Source: Ascidiella aspersa (lineage: Eukaryota). Taken from it: a stretch of 64,000 bases of DNA. Every line of letters begins with the position of its first letter. Within the stretch, counting starts at the first letter, position 1. Position numbers and translations under genes: made by a program. Below the pieces are notes generated by a model. The model was not told where the DNA came from and did not search any database. It saw only the letters and a list, made by a program, of their open reading frames with translations. Below are positions 12,767 through 44,500 of the stretch, one piece after another. The stretch is from contig OZ004613.1 in the NCBI GenBank assembly GCA_963924565.1, positions 13,888,001 to 13,952,000 of the forward strand. Direction: 5' to 3'.

Positions 12767-15700
12767 ATGCAAGGCGCCACACGGTACATCCCGAGGCGCT
12801 ACCGGTCGCTGGTCATTCGCTGCGCCCTCAGCTGCCTGGCTCTCATTCTACTCTACGCGATGCTCTCGGGTGAACAGTCGTCCACTGGCGCCGGACGCAG
12901 CGACGACATGCTCTTCCAGTTCGAGCAGGAGCATCGCGTCGGCGGCGAGGCGGCGAGAGAGGCGGTCTATGATGACCCCGACGCTCTGGATCGGCAGGCG
13001 CTTGCGCCCGGACGCCATCTGGCGGACGAGGAGATGCTTGAGCGGGAACAGGTCGGCGGCAACTTCTCGGCAAAGGCCGAAGCTCTGCTAAAAGAGGGGG
13101 TAATATAGAGTTTAATTTTCTTTTACCAGTACTGCTTTTTACTGTTGAATTATTTATCTAAGTGGACATTAATTCAATCGATTAGCAATTCTTGTGTTTT
13201 AGGTTGCCTATCGGTTTCTTATAGTGTAAAGTTATTTTAGACTGCTAATAGCGCAGCCGAATAACTATAGTCTTTTTAGTGAGATTCGTGTGATAACTAT
13301 AGTTATTTTTTATATAAATTGTCAAATGAATGCTACGGAAACAACGGCGCCGTGAAATGAACAACTTTATTGTCCGATTTTGCTGTCACTCGAAAAATTA
13401 AATATAAACATTTGGTAAAAGCAGTGGTCGCCACAACGTCATGCATACGAATTACACAGTGAAAATTTTCTGTAGAATAACATAAAACACTCCACCAACA
13501 ATATGTTAGATTTGAGCAGGGTAATAATAAAAAGCTACTTGGAGTAAGACTAGTTTGCTAAATATTTTTTTAGAATGACGTGTTAGTCCCACATTCTCCA
13601 GTTTGGTCAAGAAATAATCTTCATTTTTTGATCCAAGTCGATTAGCGCAACTGATTTTACCGCGGTACACTATACTCTAAGTCTAAGGCAGTGGTTCTCA
13701 ACCGGGGTGCCGCGGCGCCCTGGTGTGCAATTTCTAATGCTCAAGGGTGTCGATAAGTATTTGAGAAATTTTAAAAATCTGATTTTTGCTCAGTTGGTAA
13801 ACTTCTTGATACAACTATTTGTGTACGATTAGAATCCATTACATCAAATGACAGTTTCCTGCATGTTTTAGGTTGATTATGTTATCTCAGTTCCATTCAT
13901 AGTGACATTTTAGTAAAATACTCTACGAAAATTCTGAGAATCACTGCTCTAAGGAGTACAGCTCTTATCACTGTCACGCAAATAAGTATAAATCCATTTC
14001 GTGTTCTCCAGGTTTACGAATACTTCACGGAGGACGAGCTAAGGCCCTGGTTCGAGAAGCCCGAACCGGAACCGAACGGACCAGGGGAGTACGGGCGTGC
14101 GGTGAGGGTGACCGACACCGACCCCGAGGTTAAGAAAGCGGTCAAGGCCGGCTGGGACAAGCACGCCTTTAACCATTACGTTTGCGACAAGATCTCGGTG
14201 CACAGAACCATCGGCGATAAAAGAGACAGAGAGTAAGGCTCAGTAGTGAAGACTTTGTTTTTTTAATCAACTCCGGGATTACTGAGCTGAGTTGAAAAGT
14301 AGGATTTTTAGCGCTGTACGATAAGAAAGCAAAGTGGTTTGCTGTAACCCAACTGTGGAAAGTTAGCATTGCAACGCATTTTGATCAGTTTAAAACAATA
14401 AACATTAAGTGCGTTCAAATTACGGTATTAACAGTAGAAAGCAGTGGTTCCAACCTTTATCGCGGCGAATCGCAAAATAGAAGACAGGTTAATAGCATAA
14501 ACAAATTCGAATTTAATTATTTTGAGTCATTTCTTCGTATTTCCCATACGTTAAGAGACACGGGCTTACACAGTGGAATAACCTTTAAATTACATTAAAA
14601 GTATAAACAATCAAATGAATAAATACTATTGTTTGCTTTACCTTAAGGCTTAAGCAGTCAACTATAGCATTTCAACGAAGTATAAAATTAACCGTTATAG
14701 AGGCAGTGTTTACTCTACTTTGTTGTTTTATTTTGTGTTCGCCATGTTAAACAAACACACGCTCAAACGGATCTTTGGCCTGAATTAAAGCCGCGAACGT
14801 TTAGATGCAAAGAGCGAAAATGGCGAAAGCCTGCCCCCGACACCTCGGTGATTATTATCTTCCACAACGAGGCGTGGTGCGCCCTCTTGAGGACCGTGCA
14901 CAGCGTGTTGGAGACCTCCCCCGAAGTTTTACTCAAGGAAATCATTCTCGTTGACGACGCAAGCACATTCGGTAATGAGATTTAGTTTACATTATATGCC
15001 AGCAGAAGAGTAAAATGTGTAATTTTTCACTAAACCGTTTGAGAATGAAGAGAAGGATTTGGACGAGGGGTTGTTAAACTGGGGTCTATCGACTCCTCCG
15101 TGAACTAGTTTTAGGGGGTCCATTAAAGCCCAAGTGAAATATGAGTGTATATTTAGGAAATAATAAATAAAAACAAATAGGTTAACTAAAATAAAACGGT
15201 TTTGCAATGAATGTATTAAGACTCCATTTCACTTTCACATTTTTGGACCGAAATCAGCAGATTTATGAAATCGTTTTGTGTTGTGACGTAAATTTGTGAC
15301 GTCATCTCCGAAAATTTATTGCCTACCGTGGTCCACGCAAGGCAAAAAAAACTTTTAGGTATCCGCGTTAAAAAAAGTTTAAGAACCTCTGATTTAGACG
15401 GCGCAATATGTATCCTAATAGCTTAATATGTTAATATTTCCAATAATAGCTGCCGTTAAACGACAATTTGAAGCCGATGATAAATAGAAATAGTAATCAA
15501 AAATCTCATTTCGAGCTTGGTGAAAAACTCAGTCTTTGTATTTTTTAATGTACATTTGTTTAATGTAAAGGTTAAACGAGGTTGTGATGTGCGTTACGTG
15601 GAGTTTATCCCAAACTAATTAAATATTTATGAAAATACTTTGGCCCGTTGGTTCTAAAAATAATCGACAATAATCGATCGCGAATAAAGTAATTTCTTTT

Positions 15701-18700
15701 AAGTGCATATATATCGACATCATAGTGGCCCAGACAGCAATGAATAATTTATTTAATAATCTTGAAGCCGTTGGCCTTTATCTGCTGCGTTAAGGTAATT
15801 ATGTCATTTGCGGTCAAATCAAAGACAGAAAACCCTCTTTTCTTTGTATATATAATTTTCAGCGGTTTATTTTTTACCTAAAAAATGGGGTTTCGTAGAG
15901 ATGTAAATAGGTAAAACAGATCACCCTCAAACTGGCAAGATCTATACTATTATTTTCACTCTAATTAATTCTTGTTGTTTTTTCCTTGTGACTGTTACGT
16001 TTCACGTACAACAATTAACATCTTTCCATACTGTTGAGTAGAAGATCTCGGCCTGCAGCTGGACGAATACGTCAAGAAGCTGAAAGTTGTCAAGATCGTG
16101 CGACTGCCGGAGAGATCTGGTTTGATCCGGGCCCGATTGGCCGGCGCCGAGGCCGCAACCGGCCAAGTGCTCACCTTCCTCGACTCGCATTGTAAGCCCC
16201 TCGAAAGCAAACGCCAGTTTAGCCTCTTATCAGTGTTGTAAACAAGTCATTTTGAAATGGTCCCAGTCAAATGATTAGTGAAATACTCAAGTCAATGTCT
16301 GGTCTTTTAAAACACAGCAAGTAAAGTCCCAGTCCAAGTCAATTTTAGAGAAACTCCATGTCAAATCACTAATATCAATGTAAAACTATAAACTATTAAA
16401 AATAGGTAAACTCGTCCAATTATGAGCAATAAATCGTCAAAAAACATCTAAAAAGCAAAATGTAGCCATCTAATTGTTTCAAGTGCAAAACTTGAGATAA
16501 ATAGCTAAATTTTAAGAAAACATTTATTTTTAACCAAAGTCCTTTGACTTAATGATTTAAGTCAAGTCATAACACTGCCTTTTATTGCTGAAGTAGTGCT
16601 CGTTTTGCGTTGAAACGAATCATTTTCCATCGGCAAGGAAAAGCCCTTTAATATCTAAATTGTTATTTTGTACACATTTCGAACAAATATAGGAATCCGC
16701 GTCAATCAGCAACCAACCCCGTTTTAGACTTGTCGTGTTAAGTTAGGAATAATCCGCCGCCAACAGAAAGTGATATACATTTATAATAATCGTGTTAGAT
16801 TATGACTATAATTGAATTGAGACCCTTTTGTATTGATCTGTATTCCACTTTTAGACACCTTTTATTTATGCACAATTTCACTAAAAGACGAATTCGTATC
16901 TGTCAGCAAAAGGATTTAGTGATTTGATATTAAAGTAACGCGCAATAGGCTGCAAAATTTTAATAGTCTCTTAATTTTTAATAGTCCTCTTTTAACTTGA
17001 AGCGAGTTCGACTCAGTAACAGAATTAGTCCAGTCTTGTGATATATTTAATGATAGGGCTCCTCGGCTAATTGAACGTGTTTTTAATTACAAATTGTGGA
17101 TAACTTGTCCTCCTCGTGTTTTTTATTAATTTACCTTGTGGCTTTGCGAAGGCGAATGCGCCCCTCACTGGCTAGAGCCCCTGCTAGAACGGATTGCTGA
17201 AGATCCGACCAGAGTTGTTTGTCCCGTCATAGAGGTTATTGACTCGACTACATTTGCGATGAGTCTCACTACTGCCAGGTATTTCATTCATTTTGAAATT
17301 ACATAAAAAGCAAACTCGATTTCAAATGCTATGTATTTGATTTGGTTTATATTATTACATTGTTTGGGTATTAAATGAAACAGTATAAGGTTTTCAGTTG
17401 ATGTTTGGTAAGGGGGTCATATGGATAATTTTATTTAGTGATGCGGTCGGTGTTGGTGCGTAAAACAGTGTAGTGCGTCAGTAAAATTCTATAGATACCA
17501 ATGTTAGTATTTGCAAAAATAACCTACCGGATATTTTTCCAAACTGTAGTGACAATCATACCTTTCCAATCGCTCTCGTATTTTTGCCTTTTTACCAATT
17601 GCTTTCGGCTAGGTAAGCAATGTTTCCGTTTTCAACATCTAATCTTCAACCTAGCAAGCCGCACATGTAAACATGTCGGTTGTAGTTTGTCGCTGATTAA
17701 CACCCCTTTTCTGCCGAAATAAGGTCTGTGCAGCGGGGCATCTTGGGGTGGAATCTGCATTTCAACTGGGGACCCCAAGTGCCCACGCTCGGGGAAAGAC
17801 CCCGCAACGACCAGGCCATACCCTCGCCCACCATGGCCGGCGGTCTCTTTGCCATGCACAAGAAGTACTTCGAATATTTGGGAACATACGACCCCGACAT
17901 GTTGGTATGGGGAGGAGAAAACATCGAGATGTCGCTGAGAGTAAGTTTTTCCATTTTTTGTCTGACATGTGGTTATTAGTCGCCAGAAATACAAAGATAA
18001 AATTCATCTGCGGATAGAGGCAGTTGCACGTAAATGAAAAACAAGGTGCCACCAAAAAGGCGAACTATTAAAATAAAAAAATATAGAAACAAAAACAAGA
18101 ATAATACTATAATAAAAGCAAGCCAATGTAACAATAAATAGCAAGTGTAATTGGCCTGTAATGTTTACATCTCTGTTAATATATCACATTAGGATTAGAC
18201 ATATGCTAAATAAATCTTGTCTGTAACCATAATAAGCAGAGTTATGTGAATTATTATTTAATAAATTTGACAAACTTAATTGATCTTTTAGCAACGCGTC
18301 CCGATTTGCAGTATCACATGTATAACCTAAATTTCAGTATTATTTAGAAATTATGCAATTCATTGAAAGTATTTTTTTTTCTTCGAACGACATAAGACCT
18401 AAATCAATTCAAATAGAAAAACTTTTGTAGATCAAAACGAATAGTGTTGCAGAGCAAAACATATCGGGCATTATTTTGCAATGATAAAAGTATATTTTTT
18501 TTCAGATTTGGACGTGTGGAGGTACTTTGGAAATTCAACCTTGCTCGCACGTGGGTCACGTGTTCCGAAGCAGGGCCCCATACAGTCACCCCGGGGGTAG
18601 CTCGGTGATTACCCGAAACAACAAGCGGGTGGCGGAGGTCTGGCTCGACGAGTACAAGGAGCAGTTTTACAAGCGAGTACCCTCCGCTAGAACGGTAAGT

Positions 18701-21161
18701 TAATTTACTTGTTGTCGCAGGAAGTAGGGGGTTTTAACAATATAAGGAAAATAAACTTTTGTAAAGATTTATCACGCTTAGATGTAGATTATTTGCACAA
18801 GTTGTTTACTGTTTACATCTATGTCCGGTAAACACTCCTTATATGAAGTAAGACCATGAGTAAAATTCAAAAGCGGATAGTGGCTTGAGATGATCATATT
18901 GCTGTTTCAGGGAATATATATAGTTGTTAATGGTAGTGGTGTGCTAAATTTTCAACTCCAGTTACATTTTCAGTTTGCTGCCTGGCCAACATCGTTTGTT
19001 TTAATCAAATAATTGAGGATCCTTTTTAAAAATCACGAAACGAAAAGGTAGTTTATAATAATTGCTTTACAGGCTCTCGCAATAAAGTAAGTATAGGATA
19101 CTTGTGCAAATTACTTACAATACAACACACAAGCCCTTAAATAATTTATGAATATTAAACATTAGTAACATGATGATGCCTTTCTGGTGGGTAAGTAGTT
19201 AAGAATTATTAAGATGTTGTGCGGACCCTTAAAACTTCCGCACTGAGTCCATGTCGCAAGCGTAACTCAAGTTTGAGAATCATAGTTTAGACTAGAGCTT
19301 TTCTCAGCCGTCTTCATTTTCGAATTAGAACAATTATTTGTCCAAACCTTTTATAACACGAATCAAAAAGAGTTGTTAATTATTTAGATTGACGCCGGTG
19401 ACACGTCGCTAAGGAAAAAGCTTAGAGTCGACCTAAAATGTCACAGTTTTAATTGGTACCTCACGAACATTTATCCGGACCTGTACGCTACTCCAAGAGA
19501 AGATATAATCTTGTCTGGCGAGGTAAGCACTGGTTTAAGCATTATAATATCCTTTGTAAAATGTGATATCTTTACTGTTTCCAGAAGAATTTATTCTTTT
19601 GTACTTCATGGTATTTTATTCGAAAAAAAAGTTATATATTTTATTAGCCAATTTTTGTGTTTTTAATCTTTAATGTTCGCAAAGGTTTATGTGGCACACG
19701 ATGTTAATAAAAAAATAAAATAAGGTGGCTCACGGTGGGCGATTAACGATTTTATCGAAAGCTAATAAGGCAGAAGAAATAAAAAAATCCAAACATCGAC
19801 AATTGTTCATTATATTTTTCAGTGGCACAATGGCGACAAAAACGGCAAATTTTGCTTGGACTCGGCTAATCCTGATGGAAAGACTGGCGTAAGGGCCAAC
19901 ATGTACGTTTGTCACGGCATGGGAGTAAACCAGGTAAGTGTGATTTAAAAACCATTGTATTGTTTTTCTGCAGCTGAAGGTCGTTATCATAATTTGTCAC
20001 AGTACCTATGTTTAACACTGTAAGCTTAACAAGCACAGTTGTGTGAATATTTGTCAATTTTGCGAATTGCAATTATCTTTTAAAATGCCTCGTGATTTGC
20101 AGTATGGTATCTAAGGCCTAAAACTATTGACAGAATATCGTCCGAGATCAAAATTGCCTAGCCAACAATACCTTTACAAGATTAAACAGCGTTACAAGTA
20201 CAGCCGAATGTATATATATGTCCTTAATATAATCCATAGAACACAAGGAACTGAGAATTTGCAGTGAGTTATTAATTGGGTTATAAACCTTAGGTCCTTG
20301 ACAATATTAGAGATATTTTTATAGCGCGTGTTGTACTCAAAGCTATACTTACCTTTTTCCGAAATAGGACTTTATATACACGCGGCAAAAGGAGATTCGG
20401 CACAACTTCGTCAACGAGCTTTGCATGGAACCCAACGGTGACTACCTGGTTGCCAACCACTGCGTCTATCCAAAAGGACCGGTTCCAGCACAACAGCAAT
20501 GGGAAATACTGCCGGTAAACATGCGGACTAGAGTAGACCTGATTGATGCAAGTGTATCTCACTTTTGTTTATGTTCTGAGGAGACAACGAATTTCCTGAA
20601 TTGCGCTTTTCATCCAAGGAGAGACTTACCGGTTTCCGAGTTGCTTGGTGGCTGGCACCTGTTTTCCATATATATTTATTTTGCGCAAATTACATTTTTA
20701 ACAGAAACTAGATTGTTACTTAAGCTTTAGCATCAGGAAATAAAATCGTGATGTCAATCTCAGCAGTCGCGTTCGTATTGTACATAATCGGTGTTGTAAT
20801 GACCTAAATGTAAAGAAAAATCCCTCTCAATTTTTAGATAAGTCACTTTTGACTTCACATATCTTTTCTGCTTATCGAACGCTAAAAATCAGACCGCAAA
20901 TTTAATGGTTTAACACTTTATTTTAATGTAAATAACCGTTTTTAAACTTGACAATACTTTAACATTTTCAAAAATTGTAAGTTTTGCTTGTTTAGAGCAC
21001 TCTAAAAAACGCATGCATTCTGACAGGACGGCCATGTGAAACACAAGCTAGCTGACAAGTGCGTGGTGGCGATCGACACCTTGGTGGCCATGCAGCCGTG
21101 CCTTGACCGGCCTTCGCATAAGTGGACCATAAAGCCGATCAACGGACAGCAACAAGCCTGA
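12767..21161 (+). CDS. GALNT: Polypeptide N-acetylgalactosaminyltransferase (GT27 + ricin-B lectin), isoform/copy A, ~643 aa, 11 coding exons
   Basis: Exons 12767-13099, 14012-14232, 14805-14971, 16042-16191, 17152-17278, 17724-17940, 18506-18694, 19388-19522, 19823-19933, 20368-20514, 21027-21161. All introns are GT-AG, phases are consistent, and the total is 1932 nt. The protein has an N-terminal TM anchor ([19 protein letters not shown]), [47 protein letters not shown] (DxH), [28 protein letters not shown], and lectin repeats ([15 protein letters not shown]). The specific orthologue cannot be assigned. Confidence 0.95.
13689..13946. mobile_element. hAT (Charlie-like) MITE in GALNT intron
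   Basis: TIRs CAGTGGTTCTCA / TGAGAATCACTG; 8-bp TSD GTCTAAGG / CTCTAAGG. Confidence 0.75.
15065..15391. mobile_element. hAT-type MITE in GALNT intron
   Basis: TIR-like GAGGGGTTGTTAAACT / AGTTTAAGAACCTCTG; TSD ATTTGGAC / ATTTAGAC. Confidence 0.65.
16231..16577. mobile_element. AAGTC-repeat MITE family member
   Basis: Ends CAGTGTT / AACACTG, TSD CCTCTTAT / CCTTTTAT, many internal (C)AAGTC(A) motifs. Related copies lie near 10480-10640, 34351-34802, 37330-37470, 39120-39456, 40490-40670 and 42190-42300. Confidence 0.7.
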
Positions 21162-22867
21162 GAGGCGGGAACAGAATCGCGCGGAGCTGTGACAATTAGA
21201 AAAAAGTTAGATGGGCCTTCGTCCCGAGGAAAACGCAAGTCTCCTACCTGCGCTGCAACGTAAAGCGTAGAGGCTTGCGGTAGAGCGTCGGAAACGCAGG
21301 CTTGCTGGCGCAGCACAACCCGATGAACGAATCTTGAGACGATTTTCGTACCTGCGCTTTCACGTACTCCTTTACTATTTATTAGCGTCTGCGATTTTTC
21401 AATATCAAGTCTCGCTTTTAGTAAAACAGTAGTTCAGTTGGGCGCTAAGATTACTAGTATCTCGCTGGCAGTATTTGTTATACCTATATAATTTAGCAGT
21501 AAATTTTATGTAATTAAATAAAATAATTTGTGTGAATGCTGCGCAGTGAGTCTGGTCATTCAAGTGTTGTTGATTCGTAATTGATTTTAGGGTTCAACTT
21601 TATGATTTTCAAAGAGATGTATTTATGTCCAAGAAGTGCTTCATGGGGGTAACAATTCTAAAAACGATAAGGGCTACTGGACTAGGTTAATAGGTATGCC
21701 CACACAAACGTTTACCCATCATTTGGTATTATCTCGAAGAAAGGTAATTAGGCCCGACGGACATACTAATTTCTAATCACATTTTTAGACCGTCTTGCAC
21801 TATTCTCACACTTCAGTAGAAAATTGCCTTTGTATTGCATTTTATTTTGCACGCAACATACATTTAGCGAAGCGAAAAACTATACACAATTCCATGTGCA
21901 GCTATAGTTTTATCGTAATACATTCGTTAATTTATAATTCAATTATGTTAATCTGAAATTCATAAATTATATCTACATTGATCGTTACATATGTTTGTCT
22001 CGCAACACTTTGCGAAATGCACCGTGTGGTGTAAAATGCTTCACTTCAATTATTATTTAAGTTATGTTCTGTGATTTATCGTTGTTTTCTCCACGAGTGT
22101 TTTTTATTGTGCTGGATTTTGTTTTTTATCAGATCTCTGTTACTGTACGCGTAATGTAGCGTTTAGTGTGCTGAAAGCAGTGAAGCTATATTTATTTTTT
22201 TTTATTCACATGACCACATTTTATGTACTGCGCCCTGCTATTAGTAGTAGTATTTTAGAGACTCCATACTACTTTTAAAATGTTTAGACATGTAAACCAG
22301 ACACTGAAAATTAACATGGTCGTAACCACAAATTTATTTCGGTTACAAAATAGACAAAGCAAAACGCAGTAAAACTCAAGTTACATTCATTCATCAAACA
22401 TCTGTTCGTCCCCTTCTACATTGTTTTACTTAAAAAAATCCATTCATAATGTTTTCGTGACCATACGTTTCGGGTGCAATATTTGGCAATTTCTTAAGCT
22501 ATTTATTGTTTTTCTTTCTTTAGATCGCTCGTTTTATTTTACTCGTTGCTAGATTTAGAAGCAAAAATAACTTTGAAAAAATATATCATTGTTTTGCTGA
22601 GTTAGACCTTACCATTTACATTTTCATGAAATTTAAGTTTTTCTTGAAAGTGCGTATTGTAGTTTACTTTAGTTACACTTTTTGAAGGTAACATTTTACA
22701 GCAATGTAAATATGTTAAGGAGGTGGAAAAACTCAGTTTAGTCGCGGTATTTGACTAATCTGAATATATCAAAGATGTTTCAGTTTGCAATTAACATTAT
22801 TTAGGTACTACTTTTGAGTGGTATTAGAATTATATGTGTCAAGTAGGACGGTTGGTTTACCTATGAG

Positions 22868-24098
22868 CATTGGCGCCCGCACGGGGGGGCAAGGGCTTGC
22901 CCCCCCTGGATTTTAAAATGCGATTATTAGTATTATTTATAACGGTAATATGTATTACTTATGAAGGTTAAAAATATTATACATTATCCATTGCCCCAGT
23001 GGCGTATCCAGGGGGGGCGGGAGTTCTTACCCCCTTTTTGTAAGTGATATTATCGTTTTTTGTTCGTTGTTTCTCATGGTTTAACAAACTGTTCGAAGCG
23101 GCCTGCTTTTTAAGGTTACACGTCCTAATCTAATGCGAAACCAAAATCGAGCGCAAAACGCCGTTTTTTGTCTTTTGTTTGGTCAACCGTAAACGCTAGA
23201 TAGTTATTCTCTTTCGTTATTTGTTTAGGTTGAATGATTAGTAAGTGTATATTCGACAATTGTCAACGCTAAGTCAAACCTTCTTTCTTTTTTTCTCTCT
23301 GAAAAACGTCGAGTTATACGCAGTATGTTCCTCGCTGTTCGGTCTCTGTGCTAATATCCGATGTTGGTCGACATTTGTTTAACTACATCGACATTTGTTT
23401 AACTGAAGCAGATTTTTAAAATGAGGTATAATGGTGACTGTCGTGCGCGTTTCAAAGTCTCCATTTCTAAGTAATGATAGTTAACGCAAAATTACGCTCT
23501 TTAAGCATACTTAAAGACCACGTGCTAAGTGTGCAATGGACAAAACTTATTTTCCCGCAAACGCAGCTTGTAATTTAGCTGACTTGGCACACAGCTCGGC
23601 GCAGATGTTGCGCTAATCGTGGCATAATAACACCCGGAAAATACGATCTTAGTTTTGTATTGCAGGTGGTGAAAGACGTGCTTGTAATTTAGCGCTCGTT
23701 CCCTTCATGGAACTTGAAAACTGCGCTGCTGATAGTCGAATTATGTGTGATTCTACTACAATTAATCACACATATTTTACGGTCTTAGTTTTTTTTTTTT
23801 GCTTAATGTTAACGATTGCACACCGTGATTTCGCAGCTGGCGCCTGCCAGGAATGTCGACGACGCAGGTGACGCTTTTGCTGGACGTATTTGGCTGTTTC
23901 TGATTAGTTTTGTTATCACGTCTTGCAATCACCATTCTACGACGTCATACTGTCACTGTTTTATGACGTGATTATTCATTAACGTCAGACGAAAAATAAG
24001 GGAATTCCCTAAGTTGAAAATTCAGGACCACCCCGTTTTGATTTTCTGGTTACGCCCCTGATTTCCCCCTCCTGGAAAATTTTCTGCGGGCGCCCCTG
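22868..24098. mobile_element. hAT-type MITE with nested second element (22997-24060)
   Basis: Outer TIRs CATTGGCGCCCGCA / TGCGGGCGCCCCTG with perfect TSD CCTATGAG. Inner TIRs CAGTGGCGTATCCAG / CTGGTTACGCCCCTG with approximate TSD ATTGCCCC / ATTTCCCC. Confidence 0.85.
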
Positions 24099-24329
24099 CC
24101 TATGAGGCAATATCGCTAATCTATTTTAATGGGACCGAAGCTAACATGAGCCTTTTGAATAACCAACAGCCTTTGAATGCAACTCGGTTTGCAGGCTTGC
24201 ATAAAGCGACTAGGTGTATTGGACTAAATTTTGTGACTTTAAACAAAATTTATATAACAAAAAATACTTCTGCCTGCTCCACGCCTGGATATGGGCGAAT
24301 GGCGTCCTGAAATTATATTTTGCATACAG

Positions 24330-27300
24330 GCACGTTCCGCAAGGCGCCTTTGGCTGGGGATTGGAATTTCACTGGGCCACGCAACCCGACAACAAAGGAA
24401 TGGCTATACAGACCAAAACGAAAGACGAACCATTCACGTAAGTTAGTGCAGTGATTGTCAACCTTTTTCGGTATGGTACACCCGTTTTACTATTCCTCAA
24501 AACTTATACACCCCAGTCTATGCAATACACCGAATCTGTAGTAATCCTAATCGGAATAAGGATAAGCAGGGCTGCAAGTATAGGAAATCTGTAGCATAGC
24601 TTTATATAAATACAAAATCATCAGTCACTTAATGCGAGCGGTGCTTTTAAACTTTTTCTGTCAGTGGTGCGAACCGAGGCAGTTTTAGCCTTAATTGTTT
24701 CCATTGCTCCTTTCATAAGCGTATAAACATCCTTAATAGAATTTCTTTTTTGGTTTTAATTTCAACAAGAGCAGAAACTCTTTGCTCGCAAAGTTATGTC
24801 GTGGGCATGCGAACAAGGATGGAAATCGCTTTTTCATTCAGAATCCGGTATTTAGGAATGTTGAGAAGCGATACCCAAATTTCCTCCCGATCTGTGTAGC
24901 AAAAAGGTCTAGGACAATTAGGGGATCCAAGGGCAGAATAGTCTGACTTTTAAACCTTGAGATCATGGCAATGCACTAATTGGACCTTTAGGTAAATTCC
25001 CGGCATATATAAATTGAAAATATTTGCTGAAAGTTCACAAAAGTTAAAAAAATGTGAAAATTAATAATACTTGACCTACCTGAACCTAAACGCTAACCCG
25101 AATCCTAACCCAAATAATGTGCGTTATTATTTGAACGCTAGAGAAAAAGCCCAAACTCTGGTGGGCATAAGATCATTTTTCGTCCGGGGTATATCGAATT
25201 GTTACTTCACACATTGATGCATTGGGACCTAAAGCGTTTATGTAATGATTAAATCAACGCACACTATTTGAGTTAGGGTGCTGGTTATCGTTTGGGTTCG
25301 GGTGGGTCAAGTATTATTGCATTGTTGAAAGACCTGAAAGTTATTGCATTGTTGAAGACCTTAAAGTCTAAAAGTCAGACTTTTGATACTTTGGATGCCC
25401 TAAATGTCGTAGACCTTTTTGCTTGAAACTGCACTAATTTCTAACGGATCGGGTGAAAATTCAGGATTAGTTATTAAACTGTTTAAACTCTGCCTTTTAA
25501 ACCAAATATGATCGTAGTTCAATAAGTTCACTGGTTAAGTAGCCCAAGTTACTCTTCAACATGCGGGCCACGGAATCAAAATATGTGATCCGCGGTGCGC
25601 TTTGTTTTTTTGCCAGCACCACAAACATTCAGTTGCAGGCTTTTGAAATTGCTTCAGGGCATCGTTGATTTGTTGTAACTATATTTTGCTCTAACTAAGT
25701 GTCACAAACGTTTAATATGGATATCATTAAGTTACTATTTTGTGCTGGCAAACCATAAACGTGTACAGCAAAATCTGCAGATGCTTACTTTACCATCGTT
25801 TACGTCGTTTATGTCGAATAGCCACAAAGTCACGTCAAAACAACAGGTTACTACAGGTCAAACTGGTCGCACGATATTATAATATAATAGGAATATTACC
25901 TCACAACGGTCAGTGAGAGGCGGCAAAGTAACGCAACTACTATCAGATAGCTATTTCTTCGGCATACGGTTGAAAAGCACTGAGTTATTGAACAAAATAT
26001 AGGTAACAACAATTATAATGTGGAAGGTCCTATGCATTTTGTTGAATGAAAAATGAATAAATACAGTTGATTTGGTAATGGGTAAAAAACGAAAAAACTT
26101 TTATAGACTGCAGTAAATACAGAGCAACTTATGATGGCCTATAGCGCAATACAACTTTGAAAAACGGTTATTTTGATGTTATAAAGCAGCGCTTCTTAAT
26201 AGGTGCGTAATGGAACATGGCCATTTGTGTGCCGCAGAAAAAAAAACTGAAATAACTAGAGCTCGCATTGGTCGCTAGGTGTGCCACCAGGTTTGTAGGT
26301 GCGCTGGGAGGAAAAATAAGAAACAATGTTTTAAAGTGACCCAAACTCCGCAGTAGACCTTATGTTTGCCCCACTTACCTTCTAGTTAGAGAATGACTAG
26401 TCGTGAGTTGAACTAAGGACGCCAGGTAAGCGATTCCGAATATTTATCGATGTAACAACACTTATTTTAGATCTAATGGAAACGTCAGACAGCCAGTTAA
26501 ACGGTGGGTTTGTAACAAAACTTATGGCCTTTTATAGAACCCCTGTGATGGCTGGACCAGTGTTTGCCATCGACCAAGAGTACTTCTTCAAGATAGGAGC
26601 CTACGACACTGAAATGGATGGAATAGGTTCGGAAAATCTCGAGCTGTCTTTTAGGGTAAGACTAACATACAAGCTAAACATAATGGAGCCCGATTAGGTC
26701 AATAAAAAATCTTACTAGAATATTGAAAAATTCACGATAATAAAAACGTATAACTAGACATTACAAAAGTAATTAAAACTAATTCCAAAAAAGGCCACTA
26801 AAAACAGCCAAGATCTAATATTCCTAAAATGCAGTTGATTATGCGCTGACAGATCTGGATGTGTGGTGGAACAATAGAGATCAATCCTTGCTCACGGGTC
26901 GGACACATTGGGAGGCGCAGGAAGCAATACACGCAGGAAAAAGAGGCAGAGGCTGTCCTCCGGAACAAGATGAGGGTAGCCTTCCTTTGGATGGACGATT
27001 ACAAGTGGATGTTCTTTAGGAGAACCCTGAAGGTTTCACAATATATGCGTATATCATTGCCATTTACGTTTGAAACAAACTTAGAAATTTTTTAACAATA
27101 ATTATTGTTAGCTGTGGTGGCCACTGATCTTCGTAATTCAAACCGAACTAGAAGAACAACTAAACCCTTATATCTATTAGAATTTAGTTATTTAGTTGGC
27201 TTATAGAGGCAAATAAATGTGGCCAGTATAACGTAAATCAATAACTGCATACGGTCAAATAAGTACATATAAAAGTTTGTGAATCTGTTTTTTACCACAT

Positions 27301-30300
27301 AAAACGTTTAGCGTTTAACATGCGTTTACACCGTTGCTGGTCACAAATATTCTGTGCTGCAATGACTTAAGATATTGGCTAGACTAGTGTACTAATTACG
27401 TTTTTATTGCTAAAACTTAGAATGTCGTCGTACAATCTCTGGTTTTAAGTTGCATCGATTAGGTCTTCCGAGCTAAATGACTTAATTTGGACTTAATTTA
27501 TGCTACAAGTTATTTTAAAATTACTCATAAAATTTAAAAAATAAAAAAGGATGGCCAATGGAAGGCCTCGTTTGTCGCTATTCCTATATAGCATGGTAAA
27601 CATCAAAGCTATTCTTTTTCCGCGGTTGTTGTTATTAAATCACAGGCGCGAGAAATGCTGGAGAGAGATGGGGAACCGGACGTGGAGAAGCGCTACCAGT
27701 TGCACGACGACCTGGAGTGCGGTAACTTTCAGTGGTACATGACGGAGGTCTACCCCGACCTGTACATCGTACCCCACGAGGATATCGTGCTTCACGGCGA
27801 GGTACAAGAGAAAGTAGTTCCTATATACTGATAAAGTCTCTCATGCAAAGTGTAAGCGACCTTCATGCTGGAAGGGATCAAGACGCCTCCCGAACGTTCA
27901 ACTTTGCAAAGAGTTTGCAAATTGTGAATCGAGGCAGCCACGCGAAATAAACAAATTATGTTGAATAAATACAAAAATGTGGGAAAACAACGTTTATTTG
28001 AAAAAAAGTGTTGGACTCTTTTATACTCCCTCTTAAGTTGACATTCACCCTAAATTAATTATATAAAGTTTTTTATTTGCCGCAAAACCTCTTTTTGGTT
28101 CTAAAAATTAAATTTACTCTGGGTTACATTTCCACAGTACAAAATGTACTGATATATCATAATTGCATCAAACGCTGACCATTGGGTTAAAGATAATCGT
28201 GTATAGAGAACTGAAGAAACGTTTTAAATCAGTACTTTGTAAGTGTGCCGTGACTCGACACCCCTGTCACAGTTTTATTTACTTCTTAATTGGCGTTCTA
28301 CTTCTTTCTTAATTTCTTGAATATTTTGTTAAATATTTTAACACGTTGGCAATCCAATCACTTTCTTGTGAAACAGGCGAGGTGTTCTAGCAACAAGGAA
28401 TGGTGTTTGGAGTCTAACAACGTGCACGGCAATCCAGGATCTGTAGTAGACGTGGCGCCATGCCATGGTTTAGGCAAGGGACAGGTACTGTACAGTATAC
28501 CTGGAGAATTTTAATAGCTGTTTATTAACAACGCATTGCCTTGGTGGGTAATTTGCTTCGCTGTATACGCTTGCCCAGAAGTAAATCAAATATGTATAAT
28601 ATAGAAAAAATATGAATAACACGGAAAGATGGATACTTATAAATATATAAACGTTTTGAAATAACTTGATTTTATTTTTGTAATTTGTGTTGCCCTAACA
28701 TTTTGATATTTTGTTCTCGTTGTCACTAATTCGGCTGCCTTATCTTGTAGTTTAAAGAGAACGTTCCAGTTTTTAAAATGGATTTAAAATATGTTCTTAC
28801 GGTGTATCCTATGTTTCAGTACTACGAGCTGACAGAACAGGGCGAAATCCGGCAAAACACAATCTCGGAGCTGTGCTTGTCGGCCAAAGGCAGCGAGGTT
28901 TGGACGATGAAGTGCAGGTATCCCTGGCACGACGTACCCGACTCGCAGAAGTGGCTCGTCATGCCGGTAAGTCACCACACGATTATAAACAGCTGGAAAC
29001 TTAACGCGATATCAGCAGTGTTAAAATATTGAGTTTTTTGTTGGGTTTTCCGTAATGACCGGATGTAAAAAAATTGGATTTGCACATGTAAAAAGGCGTT
29101 TGCTGTATCTTCCACGAAGTATTTTAACTGTCGCGCATTGTGAAACCAACCGAAATTGCATTTAAAATATTCGTAACTACACGGGAGTCGGATAATTACG
29201 AGAGGAGACGTCGCAACTACCAAAAAATCAACTCTACTATTTGGTTGCTGCAAGTTGTTCAATGTAAATCACACAGTCATTTATTACAGGACGGCCAAAT
29301 TCTCCACCCGCATACAAACCTATGCTTAACGAGCAATCTGCAGAAACGTCAGGTAACGTTGCTAAAATGCGTCAAGAAAAGCACAAGCCAAGTATGGATC
29401 ATTGGACAAAAGGATGGATACGAAGAAAGTAAGTTTTCGTTTCCAATTTGGCGCTAGGTATTCAAATGGTAAGACATTCAAATGAAAAAGTATGCCCCTA
29501 TTGAGAATACAACACAAGATGTATTTTAAAAGAATGAGATTAAAGTGCAAGCAAGGACAGACTAGAAAACACAACTATATAGCTTGCAGTAAAGTTCGAA
29601 CTCGCGACTATAACTGAGCTACACAGGTTCAGAGGGGCGCTCGTCGAGAAACAACCATAGCACCACCAACGCCTGCTGCATCTTGTTCGAACATGAAAAA
29701 TACGGGATGTTTATCTCCTTCAAACTTCTATGGAAGGAGATAAACATCCCGTATTTTCAGTCAATAAAACGTGCACAATACATAATGTGTATTGTGTTAT
29801 TAAGCCACACCCATTATAGAGTACCTACTGAAAATCCTGTGTTTTTGTACAGATGGCCTTTATTTAAGAAACTAAACTATCACTTGAACTTTGCTGCGGA
29901 AGTGTAATAAAAAATTCGGTCACCTCAGTTTTTGCCTCAATAAGTTAAACAAAGATAAGTCTGGTAAATATACGTTTGGTGAACGCATTTGTTAGTCACT
30001 GCTTACTGAAATTGATACGCGATTGCCTTGCTCGGCATAGCGCTTCAACTATCTCGAATGCATTATTCTTGATCTATAGAGCTGCAATAAGTTACTTAAT
30101 TTTTAAAGTACGCAATGAAGAACAAAATTAATTGGTTTTCATTAATTTAATATATTGTTGTAGGAGTTATTAACTGCTTATTAAACTATAACAGTGTAGT
30201 CTTTTGGGGGTCACAGGCATATTAGCCGGTTAAGTTTGTCGTTTTCATTATGACTTTAGAGATCAACATTGTCATGTTATGTAAAGCATTTATCCATTCC

Positions 30301-30690
30301 GTGAGCAATGCGAGGCACAAAGTGTTGCGCTCAACAGAGAGATAATATACAAATCAAATGTTAAGGACTACCAAACTAGACCCATAGCTATCCGTCATTG
30401 TATTGTCGAAATAAATTGTCAAAAACATAAAATACTATTCATGAAACACAAAATTCAGCCTAATAAATTGAATGCAAGTCTTTCACTTTCCTAAGTCGTT
30501 CAAATTTATCGTTCGGGAGCTGTAACATAATGGAACTTTTTGCACAGGCCCTGTTGAATATGATGCGACGCAGAACGGTACTGATACAGCTCAAGTCGAA
30601 GGTAACAAGCAGTCTGGACAGAATAAGACTGCAACCAACAAAGATTACGTCATAATGTACGAGGAAGGTGCCATTGAAAATGGAAAGTAG
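24330..30690 (+). CDS. GALNT: Second GALNT 3' half (C-terminal catalytic region + ricin lectin + extra tail); probable alternative 3' exon cassette B of the same gene (~698 aa if joined to exons 1-5)
   Basis: Exons 24330-24437, 26538-26655, 26853-27032, 27646-27801, 28377-28484, 28820-28966, 29290-29428, 30548-30690. All are GT-AG, open and in phase. Motifs: [74 protein letters not shown]. No N-terminal GALNT exons are seen in 21162-24329. If the last intron is retained, the frame stops at 29457. Confidence 0.85.
24449..25982. mobile_element. hAT-type non-autonomous element in first intron of GALNT cassette B
   Basis: TIRs CAGTGATTGTCAACC / GGTTGAAAAGCACTG; TSD AGTTAGTG / AGTTATTG. Confidence 0.7.
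24872..25467. repeat. ~600-bp foldback/palindromic element nested in the above
   Basis: Arms GCAAAAAGGTCTAGGACAATTAGGGGATCCAA..AGTCTGACTTTTA and AATAATACTTGACCTACCTGAACCTAAAC..AAATAATGTGCGTT recur as reverse complements at ~25255-25425. Confidence 0.75.
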
Positions 30691-31632
30691 GTTTGGCGGA
30701 TCTAAGGAGAAGCCAGCATAAAACTCTTTTCTACGATAATTTCAACGCGACGTGAGCTTTTATTCTGTGGCGTGTGGATGTAGTAGTATGTCACGACAGA
30801 TTTGAATACGAAGGTGCCCGCGAAAAAAAAGCATTTCAAACCTAATAAACCAAAAAGTTAATGAAGCTATTGTCGCACATTAATTTAAAACGTCAGACAT
30901 CGCCAGATTTGGCAAGCAAGAATAAAATAAGTACTGTGGACTCGATAGTGCAATACGTTGCCTAATCGTAGTTATTGGGCGCTATCTGTCGCGGCAAAAC
31001 TTCCTCGTATAGGGATTTGCCAAAGCGTTTATATTTTACTGCGTAATTTGTGGACGCTTTTTTAAGCCAAACATTACGCACACCAGACAGGCGTGTTGGG
31101 GTTCTTTGGATAAAATATAAACGCAAAATATGTACAGCTGCGATTTTAACCAGGTTTAGCTTGTGTTTATCCATTTAATCGTGGTTAACCTAAAGTAAAA
31201 CAGAAAACAGTTGCAGCACATTTTTTCACTTTAACATGAACATGTGGGTGAACAATACTGGGGTGTTAAAACATTTTTAATTCAAACTGTTTGTGCCAAA
31301 ATGATCTTTCATCAATCAAATTTAAAATGCTATATGCACGGACCTAATTCTAAAATATGTAGAAATTATTCTAGATTCTAGCATAAACCTTATCAAGACT
31401 AAAACAACATTGTCTTTTTGAGACTAAAATAGCAAGGCCAACATTTAACAAAAAAGTTACAGCAAAGGAAATATTTGAGAATAAAGGGTTGTTAATATAA
31501 AGATAGAAAAAATATTTAGTGAAAGGTAGTTTAGTTCGCTAAATTTTTTAAATAACCCAATTGACCTTGCACATAAAACAAAATCATTTTTGTGAAATAT
31601 GCAACATTAAATTATTAAATTTGTTTGTAAAT

Positions 31633-34600: not shown

Positions 34601-37600
34601 TATCATTTGCTTACTAATATATTGCTCAGCTTCGGACGAGTTTACCGGTTTTATTAGTTTAGCTTTTTTTGTGGTGAATGACTTACTATTTATGATAATT
34701 ACTGACTAGGTCTTTGCTACGAAAACATGATTTTTTGTCTCTATTTTTCTTGTAACTTTACTAGGTCTTAATTGTTTGTTAAATTGTCCGTTTGCAACAC
34801 TGATGCATTAAATCTAATATCGTATACCAAACCATAATCAATGAGTCAGGAACTCTTAATCCGAGTGTGAGTTTGCTAAACTTGTTATAAAAGTTTCAAC
34901 CGCCAGAATCACCTGGTTATGCGGAGACTCGAGGATGTTTTCCATTGTTTCATATGTGGGATGGTTTAGGGAATAAATGACGCTTCGAAGCAGAAGGTCA
35001 TACCAGGATAGGCCCTTCGGCGATATCCAACGGTAAGTGTGCCTAAGAACGGAAAGTTTTGCTTTATTGACTTGAGAAACAAAGACACTGAAGTGCACTT
35101 GATGCACTTGTGATTTTGTGCATAAATTGTTGTTTAAAGTGACTAAAACACAACTAAACTAAATGTGAAACGCGAACGATTGCACAATGAAATATACAAA
35201 TTGAACATCATGTGTTCGTTGTTTATTCCTACGATTTGCTGGAAAATCATACAAGATCCGATTGCAATAGTTAAAAAATAAACATAAATAGGAAAGCAAG
35301 CGTTTTTATCCACCCGCTCTTAGTGCGACTTACGCGGTTTCATTCATGATTGGCTTATGCGATGTCATAACTGTGGAGTAGAACGGGTTCTTCACGTATT
35401 GGTTTATGATGGGATCGAATACTTCCCCAAGGCGGAAAAGGTCGGGCAGATTTTTCCAGCCTTTCTCAGTCCAGTCCCAATAGGGGAATCCAAGACTTTT
35501 GTCTTTCAAGTATTTGTTCATTCCTATAATTTGAAGTAGCTTTAAATTTGTGACAAATTTTGAGCACAGGCCCGTGATCGGCCGCCGTATAAGTCTCGAA
35601 TAGCTAATGTCGTTTTGTTTTTTGTGTAGTTGGTAAAGCAAATTAAAAAATTATTTCTTTAACAAAGTCAAAACAAAGATAACTAACGATTTTTCCGCTA
35701 CAACTTATTGGTTAAGTACAATAAAGTTATCCCAAATTGTTATGTACATTTAAGTCTCGCAATGCATACAATTATCTAAATTTTAGCATGCTTGCATTCA
35801 TGCATATTTGTAATATTTCCTAAAATTACGTTTCGTGTCACACTTAAGAATTGTTTGAGGTACAGGTTTGCTGTTACATGCAGTTAGAGAACCACGATTT
35901 AAACTATATGTGGAAACCATTATGAGTCTTTCCTACTAACATTTCCGCATATTGAGCTAACAATTTTTGCCACCGTATATACCGCCTGCTTATGTGCACG
36001 TCGCCAGATCTTACCCATTTCCAATTGGACGATTATAATTCGATGCCAGGCAAGAAACATAGGGTGACCGTGCCAGCTGCAGTGCCCGTTCGAGTGGCCT
36101 GCGATGTGTTTGTACCATGGGCATTCGAAGGGCCAACCGTGCCATCTCACAATGTACTGAAATGAAGTGTAACATTATTCCCTTTTCAAAAGCTTTTTAA
36201 AGGTCGTATTTAAATTGAATAAAAACCAGGCTATACTTACTGCCAGTTATAAATTGTATCGTTTTACCCCAAAAATGATACGTTTGGAGCCATATACACC
36301 TTGTGTAAATACTATATTTTTTTATTTTTAACAGACTTGAACCCCTATTTAAACTTACAAACGGCGTCAGGTTTATTGATTTGCTTTAAGTTAATATAAG
36401 AAATAAATATACTGCCGAACTCAAACAGCGGTCTCAGAAACACTTAGGGTAAAACAGACGATTGTGCCTCCCATACCCTAAAGCTAAAATGTGTAAACGA
36501 ACTTTCTATAGTAAAGCTGAAAATTGTCGACCGTACATGTCTGGCCCGAGCTCTATAAAGGGAGTAAGGCGTTTAAGGAGTAATCTTCGTCGGTTACTGG
36601 CATATAACATCTGAATTATTCGCCGACTTGTTGTCACGTGTACTGAATGTTAACCGTTTTGGTGCTAAGAGGACGTACCGTTGAAAGTTGAAACAATCTT
36701 TAAAAATAAAAACTCAAAGTCTAGAAATATATCCAGAAACACATACCAGAAATCCATCAGACGAGTTGTCGTTTTTAAACTTGGTATAGGCTTGTATGAG
36801 ATCGTGTTTCTCAGCGTCTGTTAGAATTCTGATATTCTTTCGTATCCTATAGGCTAAAAACAACGTCAGGCTTACCAAAAACATTTTTGCAGTAAAACAT
36901 GTCAGCGTTATCAATATGCATGGCTTTGCTATGAAGATTTTACCATCAGAGATACAACTTGTTATACATACGGATAAATAATAATTTCTTGCCAAACAAA
37001 ACTTTTAATTTGCTTTTTGAGACATGTTTGCTTTATTTTTTTCTTCATGCAAACTTTAAATAAACTGAAGGACGACATTTTTATTTTAAAGATAAACTAG
37101 TTAACTACAAATACAAACTTACGTTTAGTTACGCTGCTACAGGTCCGCGATTCACTCCCCGCTCCGACGCATCGGCTGTTCTTGGTCACTCCCTCGTGCT
37201 TGCAGATTCTCTCCCTGGTCTGTAAACCTCCCCAATCAGAAGTGATGCAAGTGGACCAAGTGCCCCAAGTCGTCCAGGAAACTAGTAAGCAAGGCGGTTA
37301 CTATTACTGACCATATCGTAAATAGCTTGGAAAGTGTTGTAAGGAAGTCCCAGTCAAGTAATTTGTAAAATAACTTAAGTACGTGTTAAGTATTTCTGTA
37401 TAATTCACAAGTTAAGTTCCAGCCAAGCCATAGTTGTAGCCAGTCAATTCCAAGTCAAGTCCTCTTCTTAAAAAAAATGTTAAACACTTTTAATTGTTAA
37501 ACTCGCTCGATTAGAAGCAATAACTCAACTAAAAATAACAAAAACGCAATATTAAGCAAGAAAATTGTTTAATGTAAAAACAATAAGGTAAATAACTTAA

Positions 37601-41526: not shown

Positions 41527-44500
41527 CTAATTCTCACCCGGAATAGTACAACCGGAGTTCTTAAAGTAAGTGTTATCCACAGTTAGAGGTCCAAGATAGG
41601 GGGCGGATAGAGAACGAAACGGTGTCGTGTAGCCGTAGTGGCTGCTCTTCTGTCTATTCTTCCAGTCTTCAACCAAGCCATACCACGGGTCGCCGCTCAG
41701 ATCCAGCGAGTCGTAGTCGTAGCCAAAGAGCTGCTTGGCGTAGAACGAGTTACGCACGGTCCACACTTTGTCGTTGAGGGTAACCGAGTTGGGGTTCATC
41801 GTTTTGTTGCAGAAGGGAGACAGCGGCCAGTCGAACGATTCCAAGTGATCCGGCGAAGTTTGGCCTGCCTGGATAGCGAAACGAGACAATTAAATCCCGA
41901 AAGCAAACCACACATTTTGAAAGGGTAAAAAGTCGCCAAGCGACAAAATCGTATACCTTTATATATGGGGCGACGAAACTGCTCGCAGTCCAATCCTGAT
42001 CACCGACCTCCTCGTGTAGACTCTTGTACAGCACCAGAAGGCGATCGATCTGGCTGTGATGAAGCATGAAGAGTGGATCGAAGGCGGCGTAGGTGACCGT
42101 GGGCATTCCGTACGTGCAGAGAAATTCGAGTTCGTCGTGCCGCGAGCACATGCAATTGTGGATCTGCGGTGTGGAACAAGGACGGTGATTTGACTTGTGA
42201 CTCAAAGTTTTTCCTTATTTTCAAATGCAGGATATGACATGACTTAAGGCATTTATACTGTTGACTTGACCTGAGGTAAACAAAAGTAACTCTTGCTGAG
42301 TTTGACGATAGAAACTGTTCTTTTATTGTTTAAAGTTGTAAATCGACCACGTGGCATATTGACTACATAAAATCAATTTAAGACTTTTTGCCGAAAGCTT
42401 CAGGTCAATTTCAGTTTTAATTTAAGCTGTTTACTATAACCGTACAATTAGGCACCATAAATAAAGTACTGTGACCTGGTTATGCGGAGATTCCATGCGA
42501 AATTCCCAGGCCGCGTATGTGGGAAGGTTATAGGCTCGAATCATGCCTCGTTGCAACTGATCATTCCACAGTAGACCCCTGAGATCAGGATACCTCATGG
42601 AATGCCTAAATAAACAGCATAATATTTATTGCCTCAGGAATAATAACCGAGAGTTTAGTTGCTTTATACTTTTTTTCCGGATGTGTTTTGAAAAAGTAGC
42701 AATATGATAAGTAATAACCTGTAGAAAAGTAGGGATGCCGGGATCGGGACTCAGGATTTGGCTGGCGTCGGACTCGGAACCCGAGATTTAAGTAAGACTT
42801 CATGTCCCGAGTCTAACGTGCGGTTGCCCAGTAGCAAGGTAAAACCTAAGGCCGTAAATCGTATAGATAAAATAGCGTAGGATGTAATATTTTGCACTCA
42901 CGTTTTGATAGTGAGCGAGTTTTATGACATTATTATGAGCGTAATACTATCTATTCAAATCGCTTTGGTTAGATAGATGTGTCGAATACATTGCTGTGAG
43001 CCCAAGACGGACTCAGTACTGTTCTTAGTGGGTTTATTGGGCTTAAGTTGGACTTTGTTCCGACAGAATCGGGCTCGACATTATGTTCCAGGTGGGAGTC
43101 TGACGTGAGTTGTTCTAAACCGACTCAGAAGCAAACAGTTTTTTGGGAGCATAATGCATTAAAATACAGCACCTACAGTTTAGTGTTTTATCGAACCCCC
43201 AATTGGATGCTGGTTGAGCTTGACAAACTCTAGGTGAAACGTACTTGCTTAGTTGTTTTGACACAACAAACTTACGCTGTCTGGTTCAAGATTGGCTTGT
43301 GCGTTGTCATGATCGTGGTGTAAAATGGATTATTTACGTATTTGTTTATGATGGGATCAAACACTTCCGGATCGCGAAATAGCCTCGGAATATTTATCCA
43401 ACCTCTTTCCGTCCAGTCCCAATACGGGAATCCCAGGGTTTTATTGTTTAGATATTTGCTCAGGCCTGAAACGTACAAACAACAAAATCAAAACAAAATC
43501 TTATTGACATAAATATAACGTAAGTCGTGTTTGTGCCGTTTGTGCAATTATTAATGTTGAGATTTTTGAATAAAGCAATGAAACCTGCAGTAGCCTATAG
43601 ACCCCGATATAAAGTCTACAAAATTCGCATTTTTGCATTATAATCTGACAAATTTTAAAGCAACATAAAATATACTTAATAGTTTTTAACCGGGAAAATA
43701 CAAATTGCATGGATACATGGTATAACCCTATTATACAGTTGAAAAAAAGTGTAGGCGACTGACCCATTTCTAAGTTGACCATGATCAGTCGATGCCAAAA
43801 TGGAAATAAAGGATGACCATGCCAACTGCAGTGTCCGTGCGAATGTGTTTCTATGTGTTTGTACCAGGGACAGCGGTATGGCCATCCATGCCATTTCACA
43901 ACATTCTAAAAAAGATTACGCATCATTGGAGAGTTTTTCATAGGTCTATGTATTTAATTGGACTTGAGAAATTTGCCGCATGCCACTCGATGTATTGTTA
44001 CACAGATAGTGAAACATACTGTGTAAAGTACAACATTTGCAAACCCTTACACTTTGGGACACCAAACTATTTCATCTTTACAAAAAATGCACCATAAAAT
44101 CCTCAAATATTTTAACAATACCAACGTTGCATTTTTTCGACTAATCCACTGTTTTTTTACCATGGGACGATTACTCTAGCTTTGTACAGACGTACTTATT
44201 GTTTTTATTTCATGATTATACACATCTTTGATTTTAGCGTCACTATAGTAACCATAATACAAGTGAACTACTTAAAAGCCTTACCATATAGCCGGCCGTT
44301 GAGTTGTCGGCTTTATATTTTGTGAAGGCTTGAATAAGGTCATGAACTTCTTCGTACGTAAGTGAGCGAATGTTTTTTCGTAACCTGTACGCTGTGCATA
44401 AAAACGACTGCTCCGTAAAATGACGTTGTAAAAAACGCTAATATAAGAAGCTTTGGGAGTAAAGGATTTCAACATGCTCAAATGTTGAGGTTTTTCCAAA

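Follow-up and report, generated by a model that had tools for sequence, protein, structure and literature searches.

Layout of the gene and its two back halves

The window, meaning the whole 64,000-nucleotide stretch of DNA that was analyzed (GC content 37.7%), contains a tunicate GALNT4/12-like polypeptide GalNAc-transferase gene that begins at position 12767 on the plus strand. GalNAc-transferases start mucin-type O-glycosylation. Five shared exons are followed by two alternative 3′ blocks, cassettes A and B, and the elements of the gene are given below, with residues numbered by alignment of residue ranges to full-length human GalNAc-T2 (4d0t).

12767..13099, + strand: shared exon 1; start codon, cytoplasmic tail, transmembrane helix and stem; N-termini orthologous in relatives
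14012..14232, + strand: shared exon 2; stem and beginning of the catalytic domain
14805..14971, + strand: shared exon 3; has ...DD; the sole such exon found on the contig
16042..16191, + strand: shared exon 4; R208 equivalent, and DSH at 16182 (D224/H226, Mn ligands)
17152..17278, + strand: shared exon 5; splicing branches to A or B from its phase-2 donor
17724..21161, + strand: cassette A, six exons; canonical AGGLF, WGGEN and GHVFR, canonical lectin alpha site, stop
17724–17940, 18506–18694, 19388–19522, 19823–19933, 20368–20514 and 21027–21161, + strand: the exons of cassette A
21513..21522, + strand: candidate poly(A) signal for A, in which ATTAAA and AATAAA overlap
24330..24437, + strand: B exon 6a; counterpart of A exon 6 over its first half; F280 and W282 kept; repeat-rich flanks
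26538..26655, + strand: B exon 6b; AGPVF (G309P, L310V) and GIGSEN (V330G, W331I, G333S); E334 and N335 kept
26853..27032, + strand: B exon 7; W343, H359, R362 and Y367 kept; F361G; basic flexible loop RRRKQY
27646..27801, + strand: B exon 8; last part of the catalytic domain, then linker
28377..28484, + strand: B exon 9; lectin alpha repeat; D458 to E (28410), Y471 to A, H474 kept (28464), N479 to G (28479)
28820..28966, + strand: B exon 10; lectin beta repeat
29290..29428, + strand: B exon 11; lectin gamma repeat
30548..30690, + strand: B exon 12 (predicted); codes for an acidic tail at the C-terminus and ends with the stop; AATAAA lies downstream at 30844 and 30921

The shared exons and those of cassette A, eleven GT-AG exons in all (5 + 6), encode a canonical product of 643 residues. 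When the eight B exons (24330–30690, all GT-AG) are joined to exons 1–5, the result is an open frame of 698 residues, and the first B exon has the same phase (2) and the same start residue as A exon 6. An intron at T|TPVMAG (24438–26537) divides B exons 6a and 6b (108 + 118 bases) and is absent from A exon 6 (217 bases). B exon 12 aligns poorly and is the least certain of the B exons. The initial annotation had placed the altered cassette at 26538..27032; this interval does hold two GT-AG exons (26538–26655 and 26853–27032), but cassette B is much larger, extending from 24330 to 30690.

The splice switch that had been proposed between A and B is borne out by the single set of exons 1–5 near B, by the matching phase and start residue, and by RefSeq isoform pairs from other species that switch at the same Arg (see below). 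Searches of the genome (308.6 Mb, 75 contigs) with shared exon 3 gave 12 matches, one of which lies on this contig and is the gene's own copy. No homologue of exons 1–5 was found between A and B (21161–24330; tblastn, E 50), and the genome search found no second B-like copy of B exon 10. We conclude that the gene almost certainly has one front half and two alternative back halves. A weak acceptor was considered as the cause of A exon 6 skipping, a proposal that found no support, the pyrimidine count being ordinary.

Repeat-rich DNA with short inverted-repeat-like ends occupies roughly 22860–24100 and 24450–25500, on both sides of B exon 6a. Homology gives no support to two short hydrophobic frames that start with Met, one at 22064 and one at 23707. 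In one raw RNA run, of which about 6% was read, depth was confined to repeats, mostly at 90–95% identity, and the A and B exons were uncovered. Elsewhere in the window, two stop-free frames on the minus strand, at 35333–35650 and 41753–42214, match the tyrosinase domain PF00264 (E 2e-4 and 4e-8) and may be exons of one or two tyrosinase-like genes. Weak Pfam matches below the curated cut-off fall at 57911–58303 on the plus strand (cEGF, E 0.003) and at 34859–35158 on the minus strand (Cas2, E 0.004, probably chance).

Conservation of cassette B in other sea squirts

A search with B exon 7 returned two matching proteins at 63–65% identity. One record, P0005, is a 687-residue protein from a 2,723-base contig in which an orthologue of exons 1–5 is joined directly to a B-type half, and it very likely represents a spliced transcript. 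The RefSeq X-isoforms are computed models that are usually guided by RNA-seq. A search with P0005 led to such pairs in two species, Ciona intestinalis GALNT4 X1/X2 (XP_078485798.1, XP_078485799.1) and Clavelina lepadiformis GALNT4-like X1/X2 (XP_076818442.1, XP_076818443.1), and in both X1 is of the B type (GIGSEN, GHIGR) and X2 of the A type. The two isoforms are identical over their first 320 residues in Ciona and 333 in Clavelina, and they split at the Arg that corresponds to the end of exon 5 in the window. These pairs are direct orthologues of the gene described here, with the same N-half and the same switch residue; they carry generic names, and residue 309 is Ala in them and Pro here.

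Ciona and Clavelina represent two orders, Phlebobranchia and Aplousobranchia. Among the database matches Styela clava (Stolidobranchia) has only the A type, and no B form appears in the stolidobranch records examined. No B-like protein from outside the clade is present among the best 120 matches, which comprise seven clusters at 55% identity or above and then fall to 40% or less in the next rows, nor among the best 150 matches in a 50%-cluster database, which include two B rows; the next best proteins in these searches reach at most 42%. Orthologous B cassettes with an ordinary WGGEN, which the initial annotation had named as evidence against its claim, did not appear. In a profile alignment of 523 sequences, a set biased toward matches of the queries used, residue 331 is Ile in all 18 B rows (many of them near-duplicates, with eight distinct ones in the trees) and in none of the 504 other domain rows, where it is Trp in 454, Tyr in 29 and Gln in 12. 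Ser333 is found in 16 of the 18.

Between the window, Ciona and Clavelina, B sequences are 65–66% identical in the catalytic half (A: 74–78%) and 69–76% in the lectin domain (A: 53–64%), and A compared with B gives 44–46% and 32–38%, respectively. The window's own B lectin is 69–73% identical to those of Ciona and Clavelina. In the same three species, invariant columns number 98 of 175 for B versus 121 of 175 for A in the catalytic half, and 78 of 120 versus 56 of 120 in the lectin domain, where the columns are not independent. Because the eight-exon frame is uninterrupted and both halves are conserved to this degree, B is not a product of chance or decay. A comparison of six A with eight B rows finds 6 of 173 gap-free catalytic columns fixed but different, and three of them are V330, W331 and G333. 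This enrichment has a hypergeometric p of 0.002, which is not an independent value, the motif having been chosen after B had been seen.

In trees of the 3′ half, A and B form sister clades with support of 100/97 (37 rows) and 99/97 (23 rows, after omission of 14 outgroup rows that include the four long ones). The stem leading to B is long, at 0.85–0.97 versus 0.26 for A, and the crown branches are then A-sized, a pattern of change followed by stasis that suggests a new function and not decay. B nested within the A rows from outside Stolidobranchia, the topology of an origin after the stolidobranch split, did not survive an AU test (p 0.0007), although the long stem may bias this result. This outcome suggests an early duplication, which would have been followed by loss or non-annotation in Styela. 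A further database model from Ciona (P0247, UniRef F6TXS7) joins the A catalytic exons and alpha/beta lectin exons to the last B exons; it implies an A-then-B order in Ciona and may be a prediction artefact. Every later junction is in phase 0, so that mixed A/B forms of this kind are possible in frame.

Active site and lectin domain of the B product

A remodelled active site in cassette B, with WGGEN changed to IGSEN and GHVFR to GHIGR, was the central claim of the initial annotation, and all six A and B motifs are in place: MAGGLF, WGGEN and GHVFR at 17836, 17908 and 18554 in A, and MAGPVF, IGSEN and GHIGR at 26551, 26623 and 26901 in B. Alignment to GalNAc-T2 likewise confirms that B keeps the Mn-binding His (H359) and the Glu (E334). 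The codons concerned are as follows for this species.

Changed in B, + strand: G309 to P at 26557; L310 to V at 26560; V330 to G at 26620; W331 to I at 26623; G333 to S at 26629; F361 to G at 26910
Retained in B, + strand: E334 at 26632; H359 at 26904; R362 at 26913; Y367 at 26928

The B form of this species also carries H365K and keeps A307, G308, G332, N335 and W343, while D224, H226 and R208 of its product come from shared exon 4. Across the B rows, position 309 is P, A or S, position 310 is V, A or C, and position 361 is G, A or M, with H359, E334 and W343 kept. The proline of this species is the exception at 309; the other seven of the eight rows have Ala or Ser, which keep a backbone NH. 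Within B's own exons, H359 and E334 are present in 8/8 rows, R362 in 6/8 and Y367 in 5/8. The proline pocket keeps F280 and W282 in all eight rows, and all eight have replaced F361. One sub-lineage (P0124 and P0125) goes further, with DGSCF, GHIMH or GHIAH, and loss of A307, R362 and Y367; its flexible loop is acidic, whereas that of the other six rows is basic.

Published work on these residues indicates what the changes may mean. In GalNAc-T2 numbering, the N-acetyl carbonyl is held by the NH of G309, the phosphate is bound by W331, which also stacks on C6, and R208 and E334 read O4 of GalNAc, with E334 serving as an O4/O6 reader (PMC4388629); the G309 equivalent of a snail enzyme likewise lies at the N-acetyl group in a second study (PMC6994419). 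F280, W282 and F361 form the Pro-x-Pro pocket (PMC4432651; bioRxiv 2020.06.25.171371), and F361A alone nearly abolishes T2 activity (PMC4432651). An I253A/L310A double mutant reprograms T2 toward bulkier donors (PMC7276986). The role that the initial annotation assigned to Trp331 agrees with this literature, as does the placing of the Phe in the PxP pocket; however, this Phe stands two residues after the His (H359-V360-F361) and not directly after it. By these comparisons, B is altered where the donor pocket faces the N-acetyl group and C6 and at one wall of the acceptor pocket, and its metal and O4/O6 contacts are kept.

By descent B belongs to the polypeptide GalNAc-transferases (GT27). The B product has a type II membrane anchor and stem from shared exon 1 (helix 10–34 in the Ciona B model), the GT-A fold with DxH and the distal His (D224, H226, H359), and a C-terminal ricin-type beta-trefoil (PF00652, E 5e-18 for Ciona B). 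The canonical Gal/GalNAc-T motif (AGGLF, WGGEN) is absent, being replaced by AGPVF and GIGSEN, and PF02709 is matched by Ciona A but, at E 0.01, not by Ciona B. The fold is intact in an AlphaFold model of Ciona B, with a mean pLDDT of 84.1 and a TM-score of 0.93 by target length against human T4; built from an alignment dominated by canonical enzymes, the model speaks to fold and not to activity.

The lectin domain has changed as well. Its alpha site in GalNAc-T2 consists of D458, Y471, H474 and N479, positions that we located in B by motif spacing and alignment to T4. These residues are kept in A. All eight B rows are without Y471 and N479, four have H474, and position 458 is Asp in six and Glu in two, one of them this species. 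The B lectin probably no longer binds GalNAc. An acidic tail closes the protein in all eight B rows and is absent from A.

Human GalNAc-T4, T12 and T3 are the best matches in sequence and fold, sharing the type II anchor, GT-A fold, DxH, H359 and ricin-type lectin, but unlike B they keep AGGLF, WGGEN, F361 and the His and Asn of the lectin alpha site. No whole-half splice swap is known for these three human genes. For the changed motifs, GALNT15 is a closer parallel to B than the Y subfamily is, as far as the sequences tell: mammalian GALNT15 has parallel changes at 309, 310, 331, 333 and 361 (hamster VPGEVV...QGSEN...GHIYQ). Residue 331 of GALNT15 varies between species (W, Q or R, with Q and R often accompanied by S333), unlike the fixed Ile of B. 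It is a separate gene and lineage, and the single T15 row in the tree falls outside the A + B clade, which makes the resemblance a parallel one. The vertebrate Y subfamily (GALNT8/9/17/18), to which the initial annotation had likened B, shares an altered WGGEN Trp, and low classical activity and a proposed chaperone role are described for it. The analogy is nevertheless loose: Tyr is aromatic whereas B has Ile together with changes at 309, 310, 330, 333 and 361, the YGGENxE motif is absent from B, and a T8 row does not group with it.

Possible functions of the B product

We favor, at a probability of about 45%, the reading that B yields an active Golgi glycosyltransferase whose substrate preference has shifted and for which ordinary mucin peptides would be poor substrates. 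In such a scheme an old duplication of the 3′ exons would have given rise to the A/B pair. The shared exons 1–5 code for the membrane anchor, the stem and the DxH half of the catalytic fold, and the A and B blocks each provide the other half of that fold together with a lectin domain. The exon 5 donor would choose A exon 6, with the transcript ending at the A polyadenylation site (~21513), or would skip 7 kb to B exon 6a, the latter choice presumably coupled to the B polyadenylation signal near 30844. In the B product the residues around the donor N-acetyl group and C6 (309, 310, 330, 331 and 333) and one wall of the proline pocket (361) are replaced, and with H359, a metal ligand, and E334, which reads O4/O6, retained, Mn and a UDP-sugar would still be held. 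The outcome would be a re-cut donor pocket with a dedicated acceptor, recognized through the basic flexible loop and through a lectin that is predicted to bind protein and not GalNAc.

We lean toward altered specificity because fixed replacements beside an invariant H359 and E334 resemble a re-cut site. The donor reprogramming of T2 by L310A with I253A and the natural loss of the Trp in mammalian GALNT15, whose human form is reported active in vitro (PMC8472655), speak for it as well; that residue 331 varies within GALNT15 speaks against it. The conservation of two of the three Mn ligands cannot be counted here, as D224 and H226 are coded in shared exons and their retention is forced by A. Other points also weigh against this reading: F361 and W331 are both gone from B when in T2 F361A by itself is nearly enough to abolish activity, the sub-lineage P0124/P0125 has lost further residues, and the catalytic half of B is less constrained than that of A (98 vs 121 of 175 invariant columns).

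A strong competitor, though one that we hold at less than an even chance, is that B is a conserved pseudo-enzyme which binds a protein partner or a glycan, for example tuning or chaperoning other GalNAc-Ts as is reported for GALNT18, with the splice diverting transcripts from A. The joint loss of W331 and F361 and the missing PF02709 match, present in A, are in keeping with this, as is the sub-lineage P0124/P0125, in which A307, R362 and Y367 and the phosphate contacts are lost while the rest of the sequence stays conserved, a pattern that fits a role without catalysis. The B lectin, which lacks Y471 and N479 and yet is more conserved than that of A, looks as a protein interface would be expected to. 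There are precedents: the Y subfamily is described as failing on classical substrates, with GALNT17 weakly active and GALNT18 chaperone-like (PMC5288242, PMC12428995), and a GalNAc-binding role is described for GALNTL5. Fixation of 330, 331 and 333 and invariance of H359 and E334 go beyond the demands of a dead site, though they might be required for binding, and a pure pseudo-enzyme is weakened because the cluster of changes in B is matched better by that of mammalian GALNT15, whose human form is reported active in vitro (PMC8472655).

B is unlikely to be just an ordinary peptide GalNAc-transferase that works more slowly and favors other sequences, like GALNT15 or the fly PGANT5 and PGANT9 splice forms, while using the same donor. 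The O4 readers R208 (shared) and E334 are retained, seven of eight B rows keep a backbone NH at 309, and the Drosophila PGANT9 and PGANT5 splice forms are reported to change acceptor preference only (PMC6115407; bioRxiv 10.64898/2025.12.22.695686). Against this, five donor-pocket positions have changed together, Ile331 is found in none of the 504 other rows, and the Pro309 of this species offers no backbone NH to the N-acetyl group.

A further, improbable reading is that B is a tunicate peptide glycosyltransferase using a donor other than UDP-GalNAc, such as UDP-galactose, whose missing N-acetyl group would account for the changes at 309 and 310. Were it so, a splice choice in a single gene would decide which of two chemically distinct O-glycan types is begun. 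O-linked egg-coat glycans with reducing-end galactose or xylose are reported in a review for the ascidian Halocynthia (PMC3528131), which may serve as a lead only, no B having been seen in the stolidobranch records examined. We give almost no weight to B being what is left, at the 3′ end, of a duplicate gene that is separate or in decay: the repeats that flank exon 6a, the want of an exon 5–B junction read in an RNA run that covered neither A nor B exons, and transcript-like records that cannot tell if, in their species, a single locus holds both A and B would all allow it, but the frame is intact with GT-AG sites in 8/8 B exons, 21161–24330 holds no 5′ exon homologues, the N-halves are identical in two other species, and B is 65–76% conserved among three.

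Several elements of this picture were already known, namely the fly PGANT9 and PGANT5 splice switches, the non-classical family members (the Y subfamily and GALNTL5) and, under a generic name, B itself in RefSeq. We found no paper on the B form in the literature searched, most subscription journals lying outside its scope. The Drosophila PGANT9A/B and PGANT5A/B pairs likewise come from one GalNAc-T gene each whose splicing alters substrate specificity, but what they exchange is a charged loop or a small number of residues, whereas B swaps about half the protein, with only 44% identity to A in its half of the catalytic fold and 32% in the lectin, and changes core donor contacts. What appears to be new is the exchange of half a catalytic fold and a whole lectin domain, with donor-pocket changes fixed across at least two tunicate orders. 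Also new, and beyond the initial annotation, are a B lectin that lacks two sugar-binding residues and is more conserved than that of A, and the acidic tail.

With their identical front half, A and B form a natural controlled pair for the roles of W331, G309/L310 and F361, and the pair is available from Ciona, a standard laboratory animal. It bears on whether non-classical members such as GALNT15, GALNT18 and GALNTL5 act as regulators or as enzymes on substrates still to be found, and B naturally has a small residue at L310, which chemists target when they want another donor to be used. Further GalNAc-T paralogues of this genome also deviate: one has FGGEN (L003, G000:C3), and two have GHVSR and GHISR, in which F361 is replaced by Ser (L007 on C1 and L008 on C3).
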